In this document: positions 23,606 to 30,760 of the stretch, in pieces
How the letters are laid out: the number at the start of each line of letters is the position of its first letter
Numbering within the stretch: the first letter of the stretch is position 1
Sequence record: MK327940.1
DNA length: 64,000 bases
Source of the DNA: Escherichia phage vB_EcoM_G29
Strand: one strand, 5' to 3'
Made by a program: the position numbers and the translations under genes
The notes under the pieces: generated by a model
What the model saw: only the letters and a program-made list of their open reading frames with translations
What the model was told of the DNA's origin: nothing
Database searches by the model: none

Positions 23606-24570
23606 TGTATTCTTTAGAGGAATTTAATAATCAAGCAATAAACGCAGATTTCCAACGTAATAATATGTTCAGCTGTGTTTTTGCTACAACTCCATCAACT
23701 AAAAGCTCTTCGTTGATAAGTTCAATTAGCAACTTTTCTTATAATAACTTGGGCCTAAATTCAGATTGGTTAGGATTAACTCAAGGCGATATTAATCAGG
23801 GAATTACTACGCTAATTACAGCTGGCACACAAAAACTGATAAGAAAATCAGGGGTTAGTAAATATCTTATTGGTGCCATGAGTCAACGTACAGTTCAAAG
23901 TTTATTAGGCTCATTTACAGTTGGTACATATTTAATTGACTTCTTTAACATGGCATATAACTCATCTGGATTGATGATATACTCTGTAAAAATGCCAGAG
24001 AATAGATTATCCTATGAAACTGACTGGAACTATAATTCTCCTAATATTCGTATAACTGGGAGAGAATTAGACCCTTTGGTTATTTCATTCAGAATGGATT
24101 CAGAAGCTTGTAACTATCGTGCAATGCAAGACTGGGTTAACGCTGTTCAAGACCCAGTAACTGGATTGCGTGCTTTGCCGCAAGATGTCGAGGCTGATAT
24201 TCAGGTTAATCTTCATTCTCGCAATGGATTACCACATACTGCGGTGATGTTCACTGGATGCATTCCAGTGTCCGTAAGCGCTCCTGAGTTATCATATGAT
24301 GGAGATAACCAAATAACTACATTTGATGTTACTTTTGCGTATAGAGTCATGCAGGCTGGAGCAGTTGATAGACAAGCTGCGCTTGAATGGCTTGAATCTG
24401 CTGCTATAAATGGTATTCAAAGCGTTCTCGGAAATAGTGGAGGTGTCACTGGACTATCTAATTCGCTTTCACGACTTAGTAGATTAGGGGGAACTGCAGG
24501 AAGCATTTCAAATATTAACACTATGACAGGAATTGTCAATTCGCAAAGTAAAATATTAGGAGCAATATAA
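23605..24570 (+). CDS. 54: baseplate tail-tube initiator gp54 (321 aa)
   Basis: 321-aa ORF overlapping gp48 stop; T4 gp54 length. Confidence 0.9.
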   Translation: MYSLEEFNNQAINADFQRNNMFSCVFATTPSTKSSSLISSISNFSYNNLGLNSDWLGLTQGDINQGITTLITAGTQKLIRKSGVSKYLIGAMSQRTVQSLLGSFTVGTYLIDFFNMAYNSSGLMIYSVKMPENRLSYETDWNYNSPNIRITGRELDPLVISFRMDSEACNYRAMQDWVNAVQDPVTGLRALPQDVEADIQVNLHSRNGLPHTAVMFTGCIPVSVSAPELSYDGDNQITTFDVTFAYRVMQAGAVDRQAALEWLESAAINGIQSVLGNSGGVTGLSNSLSRLSRLGGTAGSISNINTMTGIVNSQSKILGAI

Positions 24571-24574
24571 CAAT

Positions 24575-24600
24575 GGGGACCTTTCGGTCCCCATATTTTT
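24575..24600. terminator. bidirectional intrinsic terminator between gene 54 and alt.-3-position ORF
   Basis: ggggacc-tttc-ggtcccc followed by atattttt. Confidence 0.7.
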
Positions 24601-24889
24601 ATTTACGGAATGAAATGAAAGCAGCAACTGAAGCAACTAAACTGTCTTCAATATAAACTTCAATTTTTACCGGAGCTTCTGACTCAAATTTACCTGTTAC
24701 TACACCCTGAAAAATACTTTCAGTCTGTTCTGGCTTTGAAAAATTTTCAGAAGGAAAAATTCCGAACTTTTTATCTGTTCCAAAAATTTTGATAAATTCA
24801 TCGTAAACTGCTTCATTAAAAGCATTATCAGCAGGAATAACGCCTTCAACTACAAGTTCTTGACCTAAAAAGCGCAAAGAAGATTTCAT
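24599..24889 (-). CDS. hypothetical protein, 96 aa (positional equivalent of T4 alt.-3)
   Basis: ORF with own early promoter, bracketed by hairpin terminator. Confidence 0.65.
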   Translation of the reverse strand: MKSSLRFLGQELVVEGVIPADNAFNEAVYDEFIKIFGTDKKFGIFPSENFSKPEQTESIFQGVVTGKFESEAPVKIEVYIEDSLVASVAAFISFRK

Positions 24890-24896
24890 TTTGTGT

Positions 24897-24950
24897 TCCT
24901 CATGTTATGTCAGTAAGACTACTATAACACAACACGAGGGACTTGTAAAC
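24897..24950. repeat. 54-bp dispersed repeat copy 1 (early promoter plus leader); copy 2 at 40821-40874
   Basis: 53 of 54 nt identical (tcctcatgttatgtcagtaagactact[a/g]taacacaacacgagggacttgtaaac). Confidence 0.9.
24921..24950 (-). promoter_or_regulatory. early promoter (GTTTAC-N18-TATAGT) for the alt.-3-position ORF
   Basis: Minus strand GTTTAC overlapping the stop of the Alt paralog, TATAGT 18 nt downstream, leader with GAGG before ATG. Confidence 0.6.
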
Positions 24951-27007
24951 TACATCTTGAACTTTTTAGACATTCCGTTGATGTTAACCAAAGAAGCTAA
25001 GATTTGAGAAACTTCGTTTTCCTCTTCTTTTGATTCTTCTACAAGGAATTGATTAAATCCAGCCATTGGACGAACTTCACCAGTTTCCATTAGATGGTCG
25101 CCATCATATACTGATTCTTCTAATTGTTCAGAAGGAGGAACGATTGTACCTTCGATTAGATACTTGTTATAAGCAGTTTCTTTCATAAAGTAAGTACTTA
25201 CTTTATTAATCTTCAGTAAAATTCCACGTGGTAGAATAACTTCAGCTTCTGACGGAAATCCTGATAAATGACCCGGAACGATAACTTTGATTCGCTCAGC
25301 TCCTTTAATTACCATACCCACGCTAGTTTCAGCATCTTCATTAGCATATGTAGAATGACTACCCATATGCATCAAATCTTCTGCATCAACGGAACCTTCT
25401 CCTTCACCAGAAAATACTGCGCCGGAATCATCTAGAGCCATATAGTTTTTACCATGCTCACCGAAGATATTTGGTTTAAGCGATGTGGATACGAAGTTCT
25501 TGAAATAGAACATTTTATTTTCAATGTTATGACGCAAAGTTTTAAAGGTAACTTCTTGTCCACGGTAAAGTGTAGTTCCTGGAGGAAGAACTGAACCTTT
25601 AGCGAATGCAGAATCAAGCGTCTCAATATGTTTAATAGCTCGTTCCATATATTCTTCACGGGTAGAATCTGGTTTACCCAAAAGGAACGAGTTCATTTCA
25701 ACATATGAATCTGCACAATAATCTTCAATTACATCAGATTCAGCTTGAGTTAATCCTTTTGGAGTTACTTCAGTGCTTGCGTATTCATATGCCTGAGCAG
25801 CAGATTCATTAATCAATTTATAAATGCCATTCATGACAAATTGAATAATAGCTGTCTTTTCATCTGGCGTAGCTTTAGAACCTTTAACCAAATCATTGAT
25901 AATTTTCTTAATAACATCAAAGCTATTAGAAATATTAATATCAGCAAGATCGCTTAAAATTTTATCAGTCTTATAATCAAAGAATTCTTTATTCTTTAAA
26001 TATTCTTGAGAACCTTGATATGTTATATCGCTCTGTAACTTGATAGATGGATCACGTAAACGTGCATGGGCTAATGCAATATGATTTCGGAAGCTTTCGA
26101 GTTCATAATCACTAGATTTAAAACGAGAAGCGCTTCTCATACCGCCTATAGCTCCTTTGCTGAAGTTTGAACCAATTTGAATAACGCCAGAGTTCATTGG
26201 TCCTTCTGCTTTATACACCGGAACTTTAGATTCAAACTCTTGATATTTCTTAGCAGCGAAGCTATCACCCTGAAGTGAAGCATCAACAGTAGAATATTGA
26301 GCTTGTGCTGCTAATCGACGACTAATTTTAGTTTTCTGAATAACAGCTTGGTCCGTGCGCTTATCATTTTCTAAAGCAATAGAAGCAGCAACAGCAACAG
26401 CTTTAGGAACAGCATTACCTGTTTTAACATCTACATAAACATCACCAACCTTTGATTCAACTTTTGTGAATAACTCAGTTGAAATAGGAGGTACACCTGG
26501 AATGTCTTCTAAATTGGCATTTTTACGATAAACCATAATATATGCGTACTTTTTATCATAATCCCAGATTTCCTTTAAAAGAACATATCGACCTGCTCCT
26601 TTAGTACGTACTAAACGGTCAGCAATAACTTGCATTTGACGAGCAGCGCCATTTGTTTTACTCTTTAGTACGCGGAATAAGCATGCATCAATTTTATACT
26701 GTTTCATTGTTTGAAGAGCAGTATCAAAAACAGCGTTAATGACGCCAATTGGATTTCCACCCAAGTTTCTAAGTTTAACCAGTGATAATTTCTCGTTGAC
26801 ACCTATCATTACGATATGCATCATTTTATCGCCCGGCTTAACGTTTTTATTTGTATCACCTCCAGAGGTGTATGTACAAAATCTAAATCCAGGAAGCACG
26901 CTTTCTTCGCCGGCTTGAATAGCAAAAATTTGAGGTATTTTATGCTTAGGATTTAAGTTAACAACCGGCGCCGAAGCGCCGTCAAATAATTCTGTAATAA
27001 GTTCCAT
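24950..27007 (-). CDS. Alt-like ADP-ribosyltransferase paralog (685 aa)
   Basis: Shares the alt N-terminus (MELITELFD...CTYTSGGDTN...KIDAC...GRYVLLKE.WDYDKKYAY) and R / S-T-S / E-x-E ART motifs (LYRGQ, FVSTSL, SEAEVILPRG); central region divergent. Confidence 0.85.
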   Translation of the reverse strand: MELITELFDGASAPVVNLNPKHKIPQIFAIQAGEESVLPGFRFCTYTSGGDTNKNVKPGDKMMHIVMIGVNEKLSLVKLRNLGGNPIGVINAVFDTALQTMKQYKIDACLFRVLKSKTNGAARQMQVIADRLVRTKGAGRYVLLKEIWDYDKKYAYIMVYRKNANLEDIPGVPPISTELFTKVESKVGDVYVDVKTGNAVPKAVAVAASIALENDKRTDQAVIQKTKISRRLAAQAQYSTVDASLQGDSFAAKKYQEFESKVPVYKAEGPMNSGVIQIGSNFSKGAIGGMRSASRFKSSDYELESFRNHIALAHARLRDPSIKLQSDITYQGSQEYLKNKEFFDYKTDKILSDLADINISNSFDVIKKIINDLVKGSKATPDEKTAIIQFVMNGIYKLINESAAQAYEYASTEVTPKGLTQAESDVIEDYCADSYVEMNSFLLGKPDSTREEYMERAIKHIETLDSAFAKGSVLPPGTTLYRGQEVTFKTLRHNIENKMFYFKNFVSTSLKPNIFGEHGKNYMALDDSGAVFSGEGEGSVDAEDLMHMGSHSTYANEDAETSVGMVIKGAERIKVIVPGHLSGFPSEAEVILPRGILLKINKVSTYFMKETAYNKYLIEGTIVPPSEQLEESVYDGDHLMETGEVRPMAGFNQFLVEESKEEENEVSQILASLVNINGMSKKFKM

Positions 27008-27010
27008 GAT

Positions 27011-29062
27011 TTATCCTTGAACGAACTTGTAAGGCATGTTTGTAATATCTATGCAAGACGCAATAATTCCAAGAGATGATTCTACTTTCTGTTTAACATT
27101 TGATGAAACAAATGATGCAAAGTCAACTCTATCTTCTATATCACCTGTCATTGTAACTACTTCGCCGGTTTCCATTAAACGGTCACCGTCATAAATTACT
27201 GATTCGGTGAGTTCTTCGGTGGTCATAACTTCAGCTTGAATAAGCTTGTTGTTAGTTTTGACTGTTCCATCATTGTAAGATGCATCAGTTATTTTATTAA
27301 CTTTGACCATTAATCCACGTGGCAAAATGACTTCCATTTCATTTGAAGGCGCTAAACTTCCACCGGGTAAAACAACATTGACTTTATCAGCCCCAGTAAT
27401 AACCCATCCAATTCCGACTAAATTATCGCTAGAATTAACAAGCCCTTCATCATTTTTATCGATAGAAATGTTTAGACGCTTTTCATCTGGTAAAACACCA
27501 ACAGCTGAATCAGTCATCCAAGTACCAAAAATGTTTGGATATAATGATGTTGATACAAAATTTCTAAAATAAAAAACTCGATTTTTTACCATTGCTTCGT
27601 ATATTGAAGGTAACATTCGTTGTGAACGATACAAAGTAATACCTTTTGGTAATCGTTCACCATTTTTAAAGGCTGAATCTAAATTATCAATAGCTTTTTC
27701 TATGTCAGATGCTGTCAAAATACTTGTACGCTCATCTGGATTATATAATCCCAAAAGAGCATTATTTATGTCTACATATCCTGAACCTACGTATTCACGA
27801 ATTCCGCGTTTTTGTGCTGGTGTGTATTTAGATGAATCTTTATTTTCGACTATAGGATGTAATGACCATCCAGCTGTAAGAGCATATCCACGTAATTCTC
27901 TTCGAATAATCTTTGTTTTTATTGCATTCCAAGAATTTTGTACTAACTCATTTGCAGCATCTTGGTTTAAATGCGAATGTTTGTTAATATTTCTTTCAAA
28001 CCAAGCACCTTTATATTTTTCTAAAGTATTATCGACGATAGAAGCAATAGTTTCTAAAGTTTTTATTGAAGTAATAGATTCTTTTCGTAATTTTTCTAAA
28101 GCTTTATTTTTTATTTCTGCATTAATAATGGATTCTTTATCTTCAGGAATTATAGAAGCTTCTCTGAATGCCATCCCAGCTGTAACACTGCTAAGAGCAT
28201 TCTCTAGTGCAAATCCTGAAGTAGAAATTACCGTTAATTCATTAGAATCAGAAATTAAAGGCGCATCAGCGGGTTTATTTAATTCTGCTGCTGAAGCCTC
28301 AAATTTTTGAAACATCGGTGTTTCAAATCTAGAAGATTCCAATGACTGACTTTGTGCAATTGCTCTACGGGAAATTTTAACTTTAACGATTACAGCTTGG
28401 TCAGAACGTTTATCATTTTCTTGTGCAATAGATGCTGCAATTGCCTCATTTTTGGTTACTTGAGCTCCGGTATCTTTATTGATATAAACATCACCGACCT
28501 TCGATTCAACTTTAGTAAAGAGCTCGGTACTAATTTCCGGAACTCCTGGAATGTCTTCTAGTGATACATTTTTGCGATGTATAAGAATATATGCATACTT
28601 TTTATCATAATCCCAGAGTTCCTTAAGAAGGACGTATCTGCCACCTGAACGACTACGGATAAGTCTATCAGCAATAACTTGAATTTGTCGAGCTTGATCA
28701 GCGGTTTTAGACTTAAGAATACGAAGCATACAAGCATCAATTTTATACTGACGCATTGTTTGCATTGCAACAGTAAAAACTGAATTGATATAATTAATTG
28801 GGCTTGGACCAAGACCTTTTAATTTAGCAATTGAACCTTTAGCGGTTAATGTAAAAGGAACAATATGCATCATTTTATCGCCCATTTTTAAATCGCGATT
28901 AGTATCACCTCCAGATGTATAGGTACATAAACGAAAGCCTGGTTGTTCAATTGCATCATCAACATGAACTGAAAAAATTTGCGGTATTTTCTTCTTTGGA
29001 TTTAAGTTTGTAATCGGAAGAGTAGTATCTTCGTCAAATAATTCTGTAATAAGTTCCATCAT
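27011..29062 (-). CDS. alt: Alt ADP-ribosyltransferase, head-packaged (683 aa)
   Basis: 683-aa ORF adjacent to gene 30 as in T4; ART motifs LYRSQ, FVSTSL, NEMEVILPRG; late TATAAATA upstream. Confidence 0.9.
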   Translation of the reverse strand: MMELITELFDEDTTLPITNLNPKKKIPQIFSVHVDDAIEQPGFRLCTYTSGGDTNRDLKMGDKMMHIVPFTLTAKGSIAKLKGLGPSPINYINSVFTVAMQTMRQYKIDACMLRILKSKTADQARQIQVIADRLIRSRSGGRYVLLKELWDYDKKYAYILIHRKNVSLEDIPGVPEISTELFTKVESKVGDVYINKDTGAQVTKNEAIAASIAQENDKRSDQAVIVKVKISRRAIAQSQSLESSRFETPMFQKFEASAAELNKPADAPLISDSNELTVISTSGFALENALSSVTAGMAFREASIIPEDKESIINAEIKNKALEKLRKESITSIKTLETIASIVDNTLEKYKGAWFERNINKHSHLNQDAANELVQNSWNAIKTKIIRRELRGYALTAGWSLHPIVENKDSSKYTPAQKRGIREYVGSGYVDINNALLGLYNPDERTSILTASDIEKAIDNLDSAFKNGERLPKGITLYRSQRMLPSIYEAMVKNRVFYFRNFVSTSLYPNIFGTWMTDSAVGVLPDEKRLNISIDKNDEGLVNSSDNLVGIGWVITGADKVNVVLPGGSLAPSNEMEVILPRGLMVKVNKITDASYNDGTVKTNNKLIQAEVMTTEELTESVIYDGDRLMETGEVVTMTGDIEDRVDFASFVSSNVKQKVESSLGIIASCIDITNMPYKFVQG

Positions 29063-29082
29063 AGCCTCTCTAGTGTTTATTC

Positions 29083-29090
29083 TATTTATA
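29083..29090 (-). promoter_or_regulatory. late promoter TATAAATA for alt
   Basis: Minus-strand TATAAATA about 21 nt upstream of alt ATG. Confidence 0.55.
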
Positions 29091-29096
29091 AAATTA

Positions 29097-29112
29097 AAGG
29101 CCCGAAGGCCTT
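29097..29112 (-). terminator. hairpin terminator after ligase operon
   Basis: aaggcc-cgaa-ggcctt perfect stem ending at the stop of ORF 29112-29300. Confidence 0.5.
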
Positions 29113-29300
29113 TAGTAATCTAGTGGTAAGAGAGTACGATATATTTCAAACTTTGGTCCTTTTTCATAGGCATCAAATGTTTCTGTAAATTTATTATAAG
29201 CGTATGCATCTACAAATTCGAGAATGACTTGTGATACAGAAGTAGAAACATCTCCACCTTCTTTTTGAGCAATGACAATTGTTTCTAAGTAAGCTTTCAT
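29112..29300 (-). CDS. hypothetical small protein, 62 aa, translationally coupled to DNA ligase
   Basis: ATG overlaps gene 30 stop (ATGA); hairpin terminator directly downstream. Confidence 0.5.
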   Translation of the reverse strand: MKAYLETIVIAQKEGGDVSTSVSQVILEFVDAYAYNKFTETFDAYEKGPKFEIYRTLLPLDY

Positions 29301-30760
29301 AAACCAGTTACCTCATGAAAATCACCAAATACATCCTCGAATGTATTAGCTTTAGTTTTATCTTCACGTAAACGAATCGCAATCGGAAGAAATAATTTAA
29401 CGTAATCAGTGCGGCCATCAGATTTTAACCAACCGTTGCATTCGCACTCTAGAATTTTTCCAATATAATAATTTTGGTTTTCCATAATGCGAGTACGGTC
29501 AAGTTCATGCGATTTTACACCGGCTTTATCTTTTAAGCCTGAACCAGCATTTACCTTAATTTTTCCACACTCTGATTCAAGAATAAATCCACCCGCTTTA
29601 GTAGGGTCTTTACGGTGAGGATAAATTCCTACAATTTTTAAATCAACATCAATTACTTCTTTAAATTTATAGAGATTTTTTGAACGAGCATTTTCCCACA
29701 ATCCATCGGTATTTTTGAGAATAATACCTTCAAGACCTTGGTCAATATACTTTTTATAAATTACCTTAGCTTCATCTAGGTTATTTACTACCTGGTTTTC
29801 AATTAAAATTACTTTATCATAACCTGATGTCATTTGTTCTAGTTTAGAAAAACGTACATCATATTTCAAACGAAATGCAGGAAGACCGTATATTTCTACC
29901 AACGGGACATAATCCCAGACCTGAAACTTCATGCATTGAGCTTCTTTTTCAGAAATGGTTCCCTTTAAAGATTTATTGGCGATGCCATTAGATGCAGTAC
30001 GTGATTCAGCTACTTCGGCGAATTCTTTAGCTTTACTAATTTCAGGATAAGCATCAAAAAGAAAATCTAGGCCTTCTGGCTCCTTTTCAACTTGCTCATG
30101 GTATACCAATTCGCCATCAATTAACACACCTTCTGGATGAATCTGGCGAGCTTCTGTAGTCATTTTGATTAACTCTTCCTTAAGAAGATCTAATCCTAGA
30201 TATTCATTACCAGCTCGTGATAAAAGACGAACATCATCTAATTCATCACCTCTGACTTCAGCAAAACACCGAGCTCCATCAGCTTTTAACTGGGCAAAGG
30301 CTGGAAATTTGATATTCTTATTAATGCCTTTTTCATCATAAGAACTTGCAAGCATTTGAGGTTGTTCAGGAATTAAACCTGGCCAAACTTTGTTTGCAAT
30401 AGATACTGAAGCACCGCATTCAAGGTCTCGCATCATCACCCGACGCAAAACTTCAACATCATCTTTTTTACCGTCAGTAATATATCCAGTTAATTCCTCA
30501 ATTGCCGCATTTCCAGTCAATTTCCGAGTAGCTAACGTGAATTCAATGAAGTCAAGCATATCGGTAAGAGTCAACATTCCAAAACTCTGGGTAGCAATAC
30601 CCGGTTTAGGCCATTTCTTGATATAATACTGTAACCCACGAGAATAAGTCAGACGATATACTCGTTTAAGCAATTCATTATCTTTATTCTTTTCAAGAAT
30701 TGCTTGCTTCTGCTTAGTTGAACCAATAGATGCTATTTCGTTCAGAATTTTAAGAATCAT
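29297..30760 (-). CDS. 30: ATP-dependent DNA ligase gp30 (487 aa)
   Basis: 487-aa ORF with adenylation motif KADGAR; T4 gene 30 length and position. Confidence 0.95.
   Translation of the reverse strand: MILKILNEIASIGSTKQKQAILEKNKDNELLKRVYRLTYSRGLQYYIKKWPKPGIATQSFGMLTLTDMLDFIEFTLATRKLTGNAAIEELTGYITDGKKDDVEVLRRVMMRDLECGASVSIANKVWPGLIPEQPQMLASSYDEKGINKNIKFPAFAQLKADGARCFAEVRGDELDDVRLLSRAGNEYLGLDLLKEELIKMTTEARQIHPEGVLIDGELVYHEQVEKEPEGLDFLFDAYPEISKAKEFAEVAESRTASNGIANKSLKGTISEKEAQCMKFQVWDYVPLVEIYGLPAFRLKYDVRFSKLEQMTSGYDKVILIENQVVNNLDEAKVIYKKYIDQGLEGIILKNTDGLWENARSKNLYKFKEVIDVDLKIVGIYPHRKDPTKAGGFILESECGKIKVNAGSGLKDKAGVKSHELDRTRIMENQNYYIGKILECECNGWLKSDGRTDYVKLFLPIAIRLREDKTKANTFEDVFGDFHEVTGL

Follow-up and report, generated by a model that had tools for sequence, protein, structure and literature searches.

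The 64,000-nucleotide stretch of Escherichia phage vB_EcoM_G29 analysed here (sequence record MK327940.1; hereafter the window) carries, immediately downstream of the ADP-ribosyltransferase (ART) gene alt, an intact paralog of Alt over its full length, for which the name AltB was coined in this study. From the evidence given below, we put at roughly 0.6 the probability that AltB is a functional second Alt, that is, a late, head-packaged, protease-matured, arginine-specific mono-ADP-ribosyltransferase that is co-injected with the DNA and has a target-selecting body of its own. Its different middle domain suggests targets other than those of Alt. The window belongs to a Tequatrovirus; over positions 24500-29400 it matches Escherichia phages vB_EcoM_G4498 and G4500 without a difference (100% identity). 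A preliminary description of the window had reported two tandem minus-strand open reading frames (ORFs) at this location, and both were recovered, at 24950..27007 (AltB, 685 aa) and 27011..29062 (alt, 683 aa when counted from the first ATG). The alt ORF begins with ATGATG (29057..29062), the extra in-frame ATG being at 29060-29062; the second ATG (682 aa) is favoured as the start because it agrees with RefSeq, with the numbering of the T4 cleavage site ITE-6, and with the spacing from the GAGAGG ribosome-binding site. AltB and Alt are 42% identical over their full length (BLASTP, E = 1e-160), and the slot of the pair, between gene 30/alt.1 and alt.-3/gene 54, is conserved; a divergent T4-like metagenomic contig has the same tandem pair followed by alt.-3. 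The AltB gene itself is already annotated, the pair being listed in RefSeq as two "Alt-like RNA polymerase ADP-ribosyltransferase" genes, and its remnant in T4 as well as comparable alt duplications have already been noted in the literature. AltB is an uncharacterised further member of the known Alt family.

Both proteins proved to be full-length Alt-family ARTs, as had been proposed. In a hidden Markov model search, AltB scored 71.9 bits (residues 416-620) and Alt 125 bits against the ART domain PF03496, well over the cut-off of 23.4 bits. AltB residues 1-685 matched positions 2-674 of phrog_802 (E = 2e-256), and Alt also matched this profile end to end. The motifs quoted in the preliminary description, LYRGQ or LYRSQ, FVSTSL, and EAE or EME followed by VILPRG, were found in both proteins. 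Mutation of the R/STS/ExE signature had been named as a sign that the 685-aa protein lacks activity; in careful alignment, the signature was intact in both proteins, with R482, S507, E587 and E589 of AltB in register with T4 Alt, ModA and ModB. In a 17-member family alignment, R482, S507-T-S509 and E587-A-E589 were invariant. Among R-S-E ARTs, ExE instead of QxE predicts arginine specificity.

The domain borders of AltB are given in Table 1; assignment of its N-terminal domain (hereafter the N-domain) to PF26846 was precomputed on a 99%-identical AltB ortholog (P0001) and on P0009. AltB was the only protein whose structure was predicted. The AlphaFold2 model (mean predicted local distance difference test score, 71.7; ART core, 80-90) comprised an alpha/beta N-domain, an all-helical middle and an ART core of the C3/VIP2 type, with the loop between STS and ExE poorly modelled. 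A sequence search of the PDB with AltB (phmmer) gave no match at E <= 0.01, and a Foldseek search with the AltB ART core returned Vis, C3, CDTa and VIP2 at probability 1.00.

T4 Alt is present in ~40 copies per capsid and ADP-ribosylates Arg265 in the alpha subunit of RNA polymerase and other host proteins. The prohead protease gp21 cuts T4 Alt after ITE-6 and LTE-619 to a 68.2-kDa form, as determined by mass spectrometry (PMC5694885), and the mass calculated here for T4 Alt residues 7-619 was likewise 68.2 kDa. In AltB, MELITE/LFD and QLEE631/SVYDGD (predicted cuts marked by slashes) sit at the positions aligned to the two T4 Alt cuts, and E631 is invariant across the family. The 76.0-kDa AltB precursor has a predicted mature form of 69.1 kDa (residues 7-631). 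That AltB enters the head by the route of Alt is argued chiefly from the conservation of both gp21 motifs together with the 236-aa N-domain. The preliminary description had expected capsid targeting to reside in the conserved N-terminus; presence of the MELITE/L propeptide motif agrees with this, but the N-terminus is not the whole of it, as the counterpart of the second cut site, LTE-619, is also kept in AltB. In T4-like phages of Klebsiella and Morganella, virions have been found to contain homologues of Alt. It is improbable that AltB is an active ART that remains outside heads and acts either on phage proteins or, at a late stage, in the cell that makes the phage. The predicted late expression of AltB is compatible with such a role, as is the lack of AltB virion proteomics in the literature searched, but AltB retains the whole N-domain of 236 aa as well as the ITE-6 propeptide and, at the C-terminus, the L-x-E/SVYDGD junction, which are processed in packaged T4 Alt, and natural fusions (see below) join the Alt N-domain in frame to the AltB body as the only alt gene of the phage.

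The signals around the two genes are consistent with joint expression. As the preliminary description had noted, only alt has a late promoter directly upstream: the alt/AltB region contains a single T4-type late promoter sequence (29083-29090, minus strand), and no separate late promoter for AltB was found in this region. Sigma-70-like matches inside alt were at chance level (20 found versus 18 expected), no MotA-box-like sequence was seen in the 3' end of alt, and no terminator was found between alt and AltB. The alt stop codon (TAA, 27011-27013) is separated by 3 nt from the AltB ATG, which has its own Shine-Dalgarno sequence within the last alt codons. Because of the 3-nt gap, the AAGGA site and the lack of an intervening terminator, AltB appears to form a second cistron on alt's late transcript, and we infer co-transcription from the alt late promoter; given these signals, the missing promoter does not imply that AltB is unexpressed. 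T4 alt is a late gene (PMC9697503). A weak terminator-like hairpin (26731..26747, minus strand; six pairs, three of them G-C, then TTTTT) was observed in the coding region of the AltB N-domain. Terminator-like matches numbered five region-wide, compared with 2.6 +/- 1.5 from shuffles, and three of the five represented the two known intergenic terminators.

The N-terminal ~230 aa of the two proteins had been described as near-identical. This was not borne out: identity is 67% over ~236 aa (residues 1-236), with synonymous sites near saturation (synonymous divergence, dS, ~1.2). Strong central divergence was seen as described (11-20% identity), but it extends over ~180-190 aa (residues ~237-415) and not ~250 aa. 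Identity was 35-37% in the ART domain (416-625) and ~42% in the C-tail (626-685). The dS between AltB and Alt was ~1.2-1.8 in every region, the ratio of nonsynonymous to synonymous divergence (dN/dS) in the N-domain being ~0.24. Therefore, the duplication of alt and AltB is old, and the likeness of the N-termini reflects protein-level constraint. Gene conversion, i.e., recent copying, was ruled out as the cause of the conserved N-terminus, as dS in the N-domain is like that in the remaining gene. Between AltB orthologs (T2, PP01, WL-3, BF15), dS was 0.15-0.22 and overall dN/dS 0.02-0.06 (0.04-0.08 in the middle, 0.01-0.08 in the ART domain), indicating that AltB is under strong purifying selection. 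In the ARTT (substrate-recognition) loop, AltB has Phe584 where Alt has Pro, three residues before the first catalytic Glu, and the two proteins have unrelated loops between STS and ExE, which differ in length and sequence. Because the middle domain and the ARTT loop are divergent, the targets of AltB are not to be assumed to be those of Alt.

Comparison with T4 identifies T4 alt.-1/alt.-2 as the remnant of AltB. T4 alt.-1 and alt.-2 align near-perfectly with AltB residues 1-~55 and 62-~117, respectively, and at the DNA level T4 differs from AltB by a 1-nt frameshift and a 1699-nt deletion at 9-nt microhomologies, CTAAA[GA]AGT (Table 1). In T4, the two reading frames are annotated as an old partial duplication of alt, and no protein from them was detected in T4 proteomics. 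The GenBank record of T6 describes its long gene as an "apparent insertion in alt.-2", from which it would follow that T4 is ancestral and that the long gene arose by insertion into a short alt.-2. We regard this polarity as the least probable of the alternatives considered and rejected it in favour of a deletion in T4: the T4 remnant has the A-run frameshift, its junction falls exactly at the 9-nt microhomology that occurs twice in AltB, the collinearity of AltB and Alt runs from the N-domain through the middle and the ART domain to the C-tail, and the divergent T4-like contig has the same tandem pair. T4 is thus an atypical genome in having lost AltB by deletion. The T4-type deletion junction was found in 91 records, and an intact AltB of at least 95% identity in ~396 of ~500 related phage records, including T2, T6, RB6, PP01 and HP3. 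The loss in T4 and 90 other records, and the absence of detectable alt.-1/alt.-2 protein in T4, could be taken to mean that AltB is a decaying or inactive duplicate (a pseudoenzyme, a core protein with a solely structural role, or a pseudogene in the making as in T4). This is very unlikely. The AltB gene of the window is itself no pseudogene of the alt.-1/alt.-2 type, having an intact ORF, the A5 run, both microhomology copies, and the low dN/dS given above; the 685-codon ORF is intact in the ~396 records, the ART domain is under the same constraint, and R482, S507, E587 and E589 are invariant.

These observations can be combined into the following scheme. Transcription from the late promoter at 29083-29090 would run through alt into AltB, and AltB would be translated, independently or coupled, from its AAGGA site 3 nt past the alt stop; the signals for both steps are present in the window, and the transcript is predicted from them. 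The 76.0-kDa precursor would enter the prohead core via the N-domain and terminal propeptides that it has in common with Alt, and gp21 would cleave after ITE-6 and LEE-631, where the motifs match those cut in T4 Alt, to leave a ~69.1-kDa enzyme. By analogy with the family, AltB would then be ejected with the DNA into the next host and, with R482/S507/E587-x-E589 intact, would be expected to catalyse NAD-dependent arginine ADP-ribosylation of host proteins. The AltB-specific helical middle and the ARTT loop may choose the targets, which would differ from the Alt set.

Several points weigh against this scheme. The L/I-x-E motifs recognised by gp21 are short, and as AltB contains seven of them their presence alone is weak evidence, so that the argument for cleavage rests on positional conservation. 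No study characterising AltB was found in the literature searched for a function of the second paralog or for virion proteomics. T4 RNA over alt.-1/alt.-2 (matching window positions 26660..27007) has been classed as "middle", not "late" (PMC9697503), and transcription downstream of alt may therefore not be purely late-promoter-driven. Both T4, which is without AltB, and phages ECML-134 and PST, which are without a canonical Alt body (see below), are viable; each enzyme is therefore dispensable, and their functions could overlap. Finally, the profile comparison (hhalign) of the AltB middle with the T4/T2 Alt middle gave a probability of 0.15%, but the profiles were shallow (effective number of sequences, ~2), so that this "no similarity" of the middles may be a sensitivity limit. 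In the same comparison, homology was clear between the AltB middle and that of another Alt lineage (P0013/14/17; probability 97.9%, E = 4e-13). A word-indexed search with the 183-aa AltB middle was uninformative, as its sole match was a 112-aa fragment and even a 99%-identical ortholog escaped it.

The viability of phages with a single body, either of Alt (T4) or of AltB (ECML-134/PST), also fits a redundant isoform, that is, a packaged and active AltB serving as a back-up or dosage copy on Alt's own targets, such as Arg265 of RNA polymerase alpha; the common fold, arginine-type ExE motif, delivery parts and operon point the same way. Such redundancy is the strongest of the competing explanations, yet we consider it unlikely. 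The ART domains are just 35-37% identical, the middles are without detectable similarity and the ARTT loops are different; moreover, ~80% of genomes have retained the two copies, with strong purifying selection on both, ever since an old duplication (dS ~1.2-1.8), which would be unusual for purely redundant genes.

Variation of the alt locus among related phages was compared next to AltB itself. The gene in first position, alt, is dimorphic. At an identity of 90% or above, 174 records held the T4-type allele (682 aa) and 319 the T2/T6-type allele (697 aa); a further 34 had the latter at 80-90%. Between the T4-type and T2-type alleles (T2, L010:504-2597; T6, L013), dS was 0.05 in the N-domain, 0.13 in the C-tail and ~1.0-1.25 in the body; the N-domain and C-tail are 99% identical, whereas identity in the body is 32% for the middle and 65% for the ART domain. 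The two alleles part at breakpoints close to nt 700 and nt 1816, with nucleotide identity of at least 95% outside and 40-75% between them. The T2/T6-type Alt is a third body type on the common delivery frame; in contrast to AltB, it sits in the alt slot and not in the downstream slot, and its body is 18% (middle) and 36% (ART) identical to that of AltB. In ECML-134 (L006:2501-4561), SCS4 and Yersinia phage PST (L007:2501-4561), a single alt gene fuses the N-domain of Alt in frame to the body of AltB, with independent crossovers at ~nt 430-460 and ~nt 280-300 within conserved blocks of the N-domain. As the fusion is the only alt gene in these phages, they lack a canonical Alt body. Metagenomic proteins P0003-P0006 showed further fusion breakpoints in the N-domain blocks. 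The shared ends, the breakpoints and the fusions together suggest that the conserved ends act as recombination substrates by which the bodies are shuffled or deleted.

The N-domain formed 69 clusters (50% identity) by sequence among 1.84 billion representatives, always N-terminal and nearly always in proteins of 600-712 aa. All five of the full-length N-domain proteins sampled (at least 563 aa) also carried an ART domain, and ART bodies were the only ones found with the N-domain at the sequence level. Two shorter metagenomic proteins, P0184 (485 aa) and P0185 (541 aa), have an Alt-type N-domain (phrog_802 ~4-168) and no Pfam or ART match in their C-terminal 300-350 residues, for which no match was found in isolated phages. 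The N-domain may be a reused delivery module, and other myoviruses may pair its fold with effectors that are not ARTs. When predicted structures of viral proteins were searched by Foldseek with AltB aa 1-240 (26288..27007), the matches were large uncharacterised proteins (TM score ~0.5, E 1e-7 to 1e-4) from Erwinia phage phiEa2809, Dickeya phage RC-2014, Shigella phage MK-13, Vibrio phage VP-1 and Agrobacterium phage Atu_ph07, some of them annotated with zeta-toxin, deaminase or ParB/Srx domains.

A broader interpretation, which we offer tentatively and hold to be possible rather than probable, is that alt is a modular locus for injected effectors, with a delivery frame (the 236-aa N-domain and two protease-removed propeptides) and interchangeable middle and ART payloads, among which AltB has targets of its own. 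Tequatrovirus would then hold three or more segregating payload types, among them T4-type Alt, T2-type Alt and AltB, a proposal to which the same tentative weight attaches. T4 Alt modifies MazF, which is a precedent for a toxin-antitoxin target. That the target of AltB is, for example, a component of a defence or toxin-antitoxin system and not RNA polymerase is speculation.

AltB resembles several known systems in different respects. It shares with T4 Alt the PF26846 N-domain, helical middle, PF03496 ART domain with R-S-ExE and acidic C-tail, as well as length, operon, late promoter, gp21 motifs at both ends, and genomic slot; it differs in overall identity (42%; ART, 35-37%), in the middle, which is without detectable similarity, in having Phe instead of Pro in the ARTT loop, and in the STS-ExE loop. 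T4 alt.-1/alt.-2 is the same gene as AltB at the DNA level but a deleted remnant, whereas the copy in the window is intact. A duplicate of alt in full length, 44RRORF187c, has been described along with partial ones in RB49/44RR (Nolan et al. 2006, PMC1524935), and these are precedents for recurrent tandem alt paralogs in T4-like phages; 44RRORF187c is from a different genus (Aeromonas phages), and its likeness to AltB is tandem duplication of alt, with no orthology implied. T4 ModA and ModB are, like AltB, ARTs of the R-S-E clade, with catalytic residues (R, S and ExE) that align, but they are early, unpackaged proteins of ~200 aa without N-domain, middle or propeptides and are 17-18% identical to the AltB ART domain. 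AltB, with 685 aa, an N-domain and a middle, and a place in the late alt operon, is outside the ModA/ModB type. The C3/VIP2/iota/CDTa/Vis toxins share the ART fold (Foldseek E 5e-7 to 1e-4, TM score to target ~0.6), and the ExE motif is common to AltB and arginine-specific bacterial ART toxins; unlike AltB, the C3/VIP2/iota/CDTa/Vis toxins are secreted bacterial toxins with other delivery domains and are 14-21% identical to it. The polymorphic-toxin-like or MuF-fused phage effectors (Zhang 2012; Iyer 2017, 2022) follow the logic proposed here for the alt locus, with a conserved delivery module and an exchangeable body and with recombination in the conserved part. In contrast to MuF effectors, the putative delivery module at the alt locus is the Tevenvirinae-specific N-domain, and by sequence its bodies are so far only ARTs.

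Downstream of AltB, the last gene of the block is alt.-3, with a candidate early promoter in front of it and a terminator shared with the convergent gene 54 (Table 1). T4 alt.-3 is early at both the RNA and protein level. C-terminal extension mutants of T4 Alt.-3 escape the ART defence system CmdTAC (PMC11618068); alt.-3, an ART-related counter-defence gene, thus adjoins two ART genes. An ORF of 202 aa on the plus strand (27702..28310), antisense within alt, and several antisense ORFs of 50-90 aa within both genes are most likely spurious.

Table 1. Features of the alt/AltB region, in window coordinates (minus sign, minus strand; dot, no single strand)
Feature	Position	Strand	Remarks
Intrinsic terminator hairpin TAAAGGCCTTCGGGCCTTTA, then T-run	29095..29114	-	Ends the upstream gene 30/alt.1 transcript; annotated in NC_054918
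T4-type late promoter TATAAATA	29083..29090	-	Only one in the alt/AltB region; upstream of alt
alt, T4-type allele	27011..29059	-	682 aa from second ATG; 98% identical to T4 Alt
AltB Shine-Dalgarno sequence AAGGA	27014..27018	-	Within the last alt codons
AltB, Alt paralog	24950..27007	-	685 aa; stop codon included
Predicted N-terminal propeptide MELITE	26990..27007	-	gp21 motif I-T-E/L identical to the mapped T4 Alt ITE-6 site
AltB N-terminal alpha/beta domain, aa 1-236	26300..27007	-	Pfam PF26846 Tevenvirinae_ADPRT; 67% identical to Alt N-domain
A-run AAATAAAAACG	26842..26852	-	A5 here, A4 in T4; the 1-nt loss is the frameshift splitting T4 alt.-1 from alt.-2
Microhomology, 5' copy CTAAAGAGT, codon 114	26660..26668	-	Start of T4-type deletion
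AltB helical middle region, aa 237-415	25763..26299	-	Without detectable profile similarity to Alt middle
AltB ART domain, aa 416-631	25115..25762	-	PF03496; C3/VIP2/Vis-like fold
Catalytic Arg482 codon (LYRGQ)	25562..25564	-	
Ser507-Thr508-Ser509 codons (STS motif)	25481..25489	-	
Glu587-Ala-Glu589 codons (ExE, ARTT loop)	25241..25249	-	Phe584 three residues before Glu587
Predicted acidic C-terminal propeptide, aa 632-685 and stop	24950..25114	-	54 aa, after L-E-E631/SVYDGD; aligned with T4 Alt LTE-619
Microhomology, 3' copy CTAAAAAGT, codon 680	24961..24969	-	End of T4-type deletion; 1699 nt between copies
Sigma-70-like promoter TTTACA-17-TATAGT (TG-extended)	24921..24949	-	Between AltB stop and alt.-3; candidate early promoter for alt.-3
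alt.-3	24599..24889	-	96 aa; DUF5498 / phrog_1739; last gene of block
Bidirectional terminator hairpin	24573..24594	.	Between alt.-3 and convergent gene 54

Knowledge of injected phage ADP-ribosyltransferases comes almost wholly from T4. The biochemically studied T4-type alt body is the minority allele (174 versus ~350 of ~500 records), and the second gene is deleted in T4, which is why AltB has never been studied. Most relatives of T4, including T2 and T6, encode a second enzyme of the Alt type that is intact, strongly conserved and probably packaged. Natural genotypes for its dissection exist, with Alt only (T4), the AltB body only (ECML-134, PST), or both. The conserved frame and variable body suggest a route for packaging engineered payloads. 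If the locus is indeed modular and the targets of AltB are its own, AltB would be one source of the differences in host takeover or in sensitivity to defences that separate T2/T6 from T4. With substrates peculiar to AltB, one host-modifying enzyme more than in the textbook account would be at work in the first seconds of a T-even infection.

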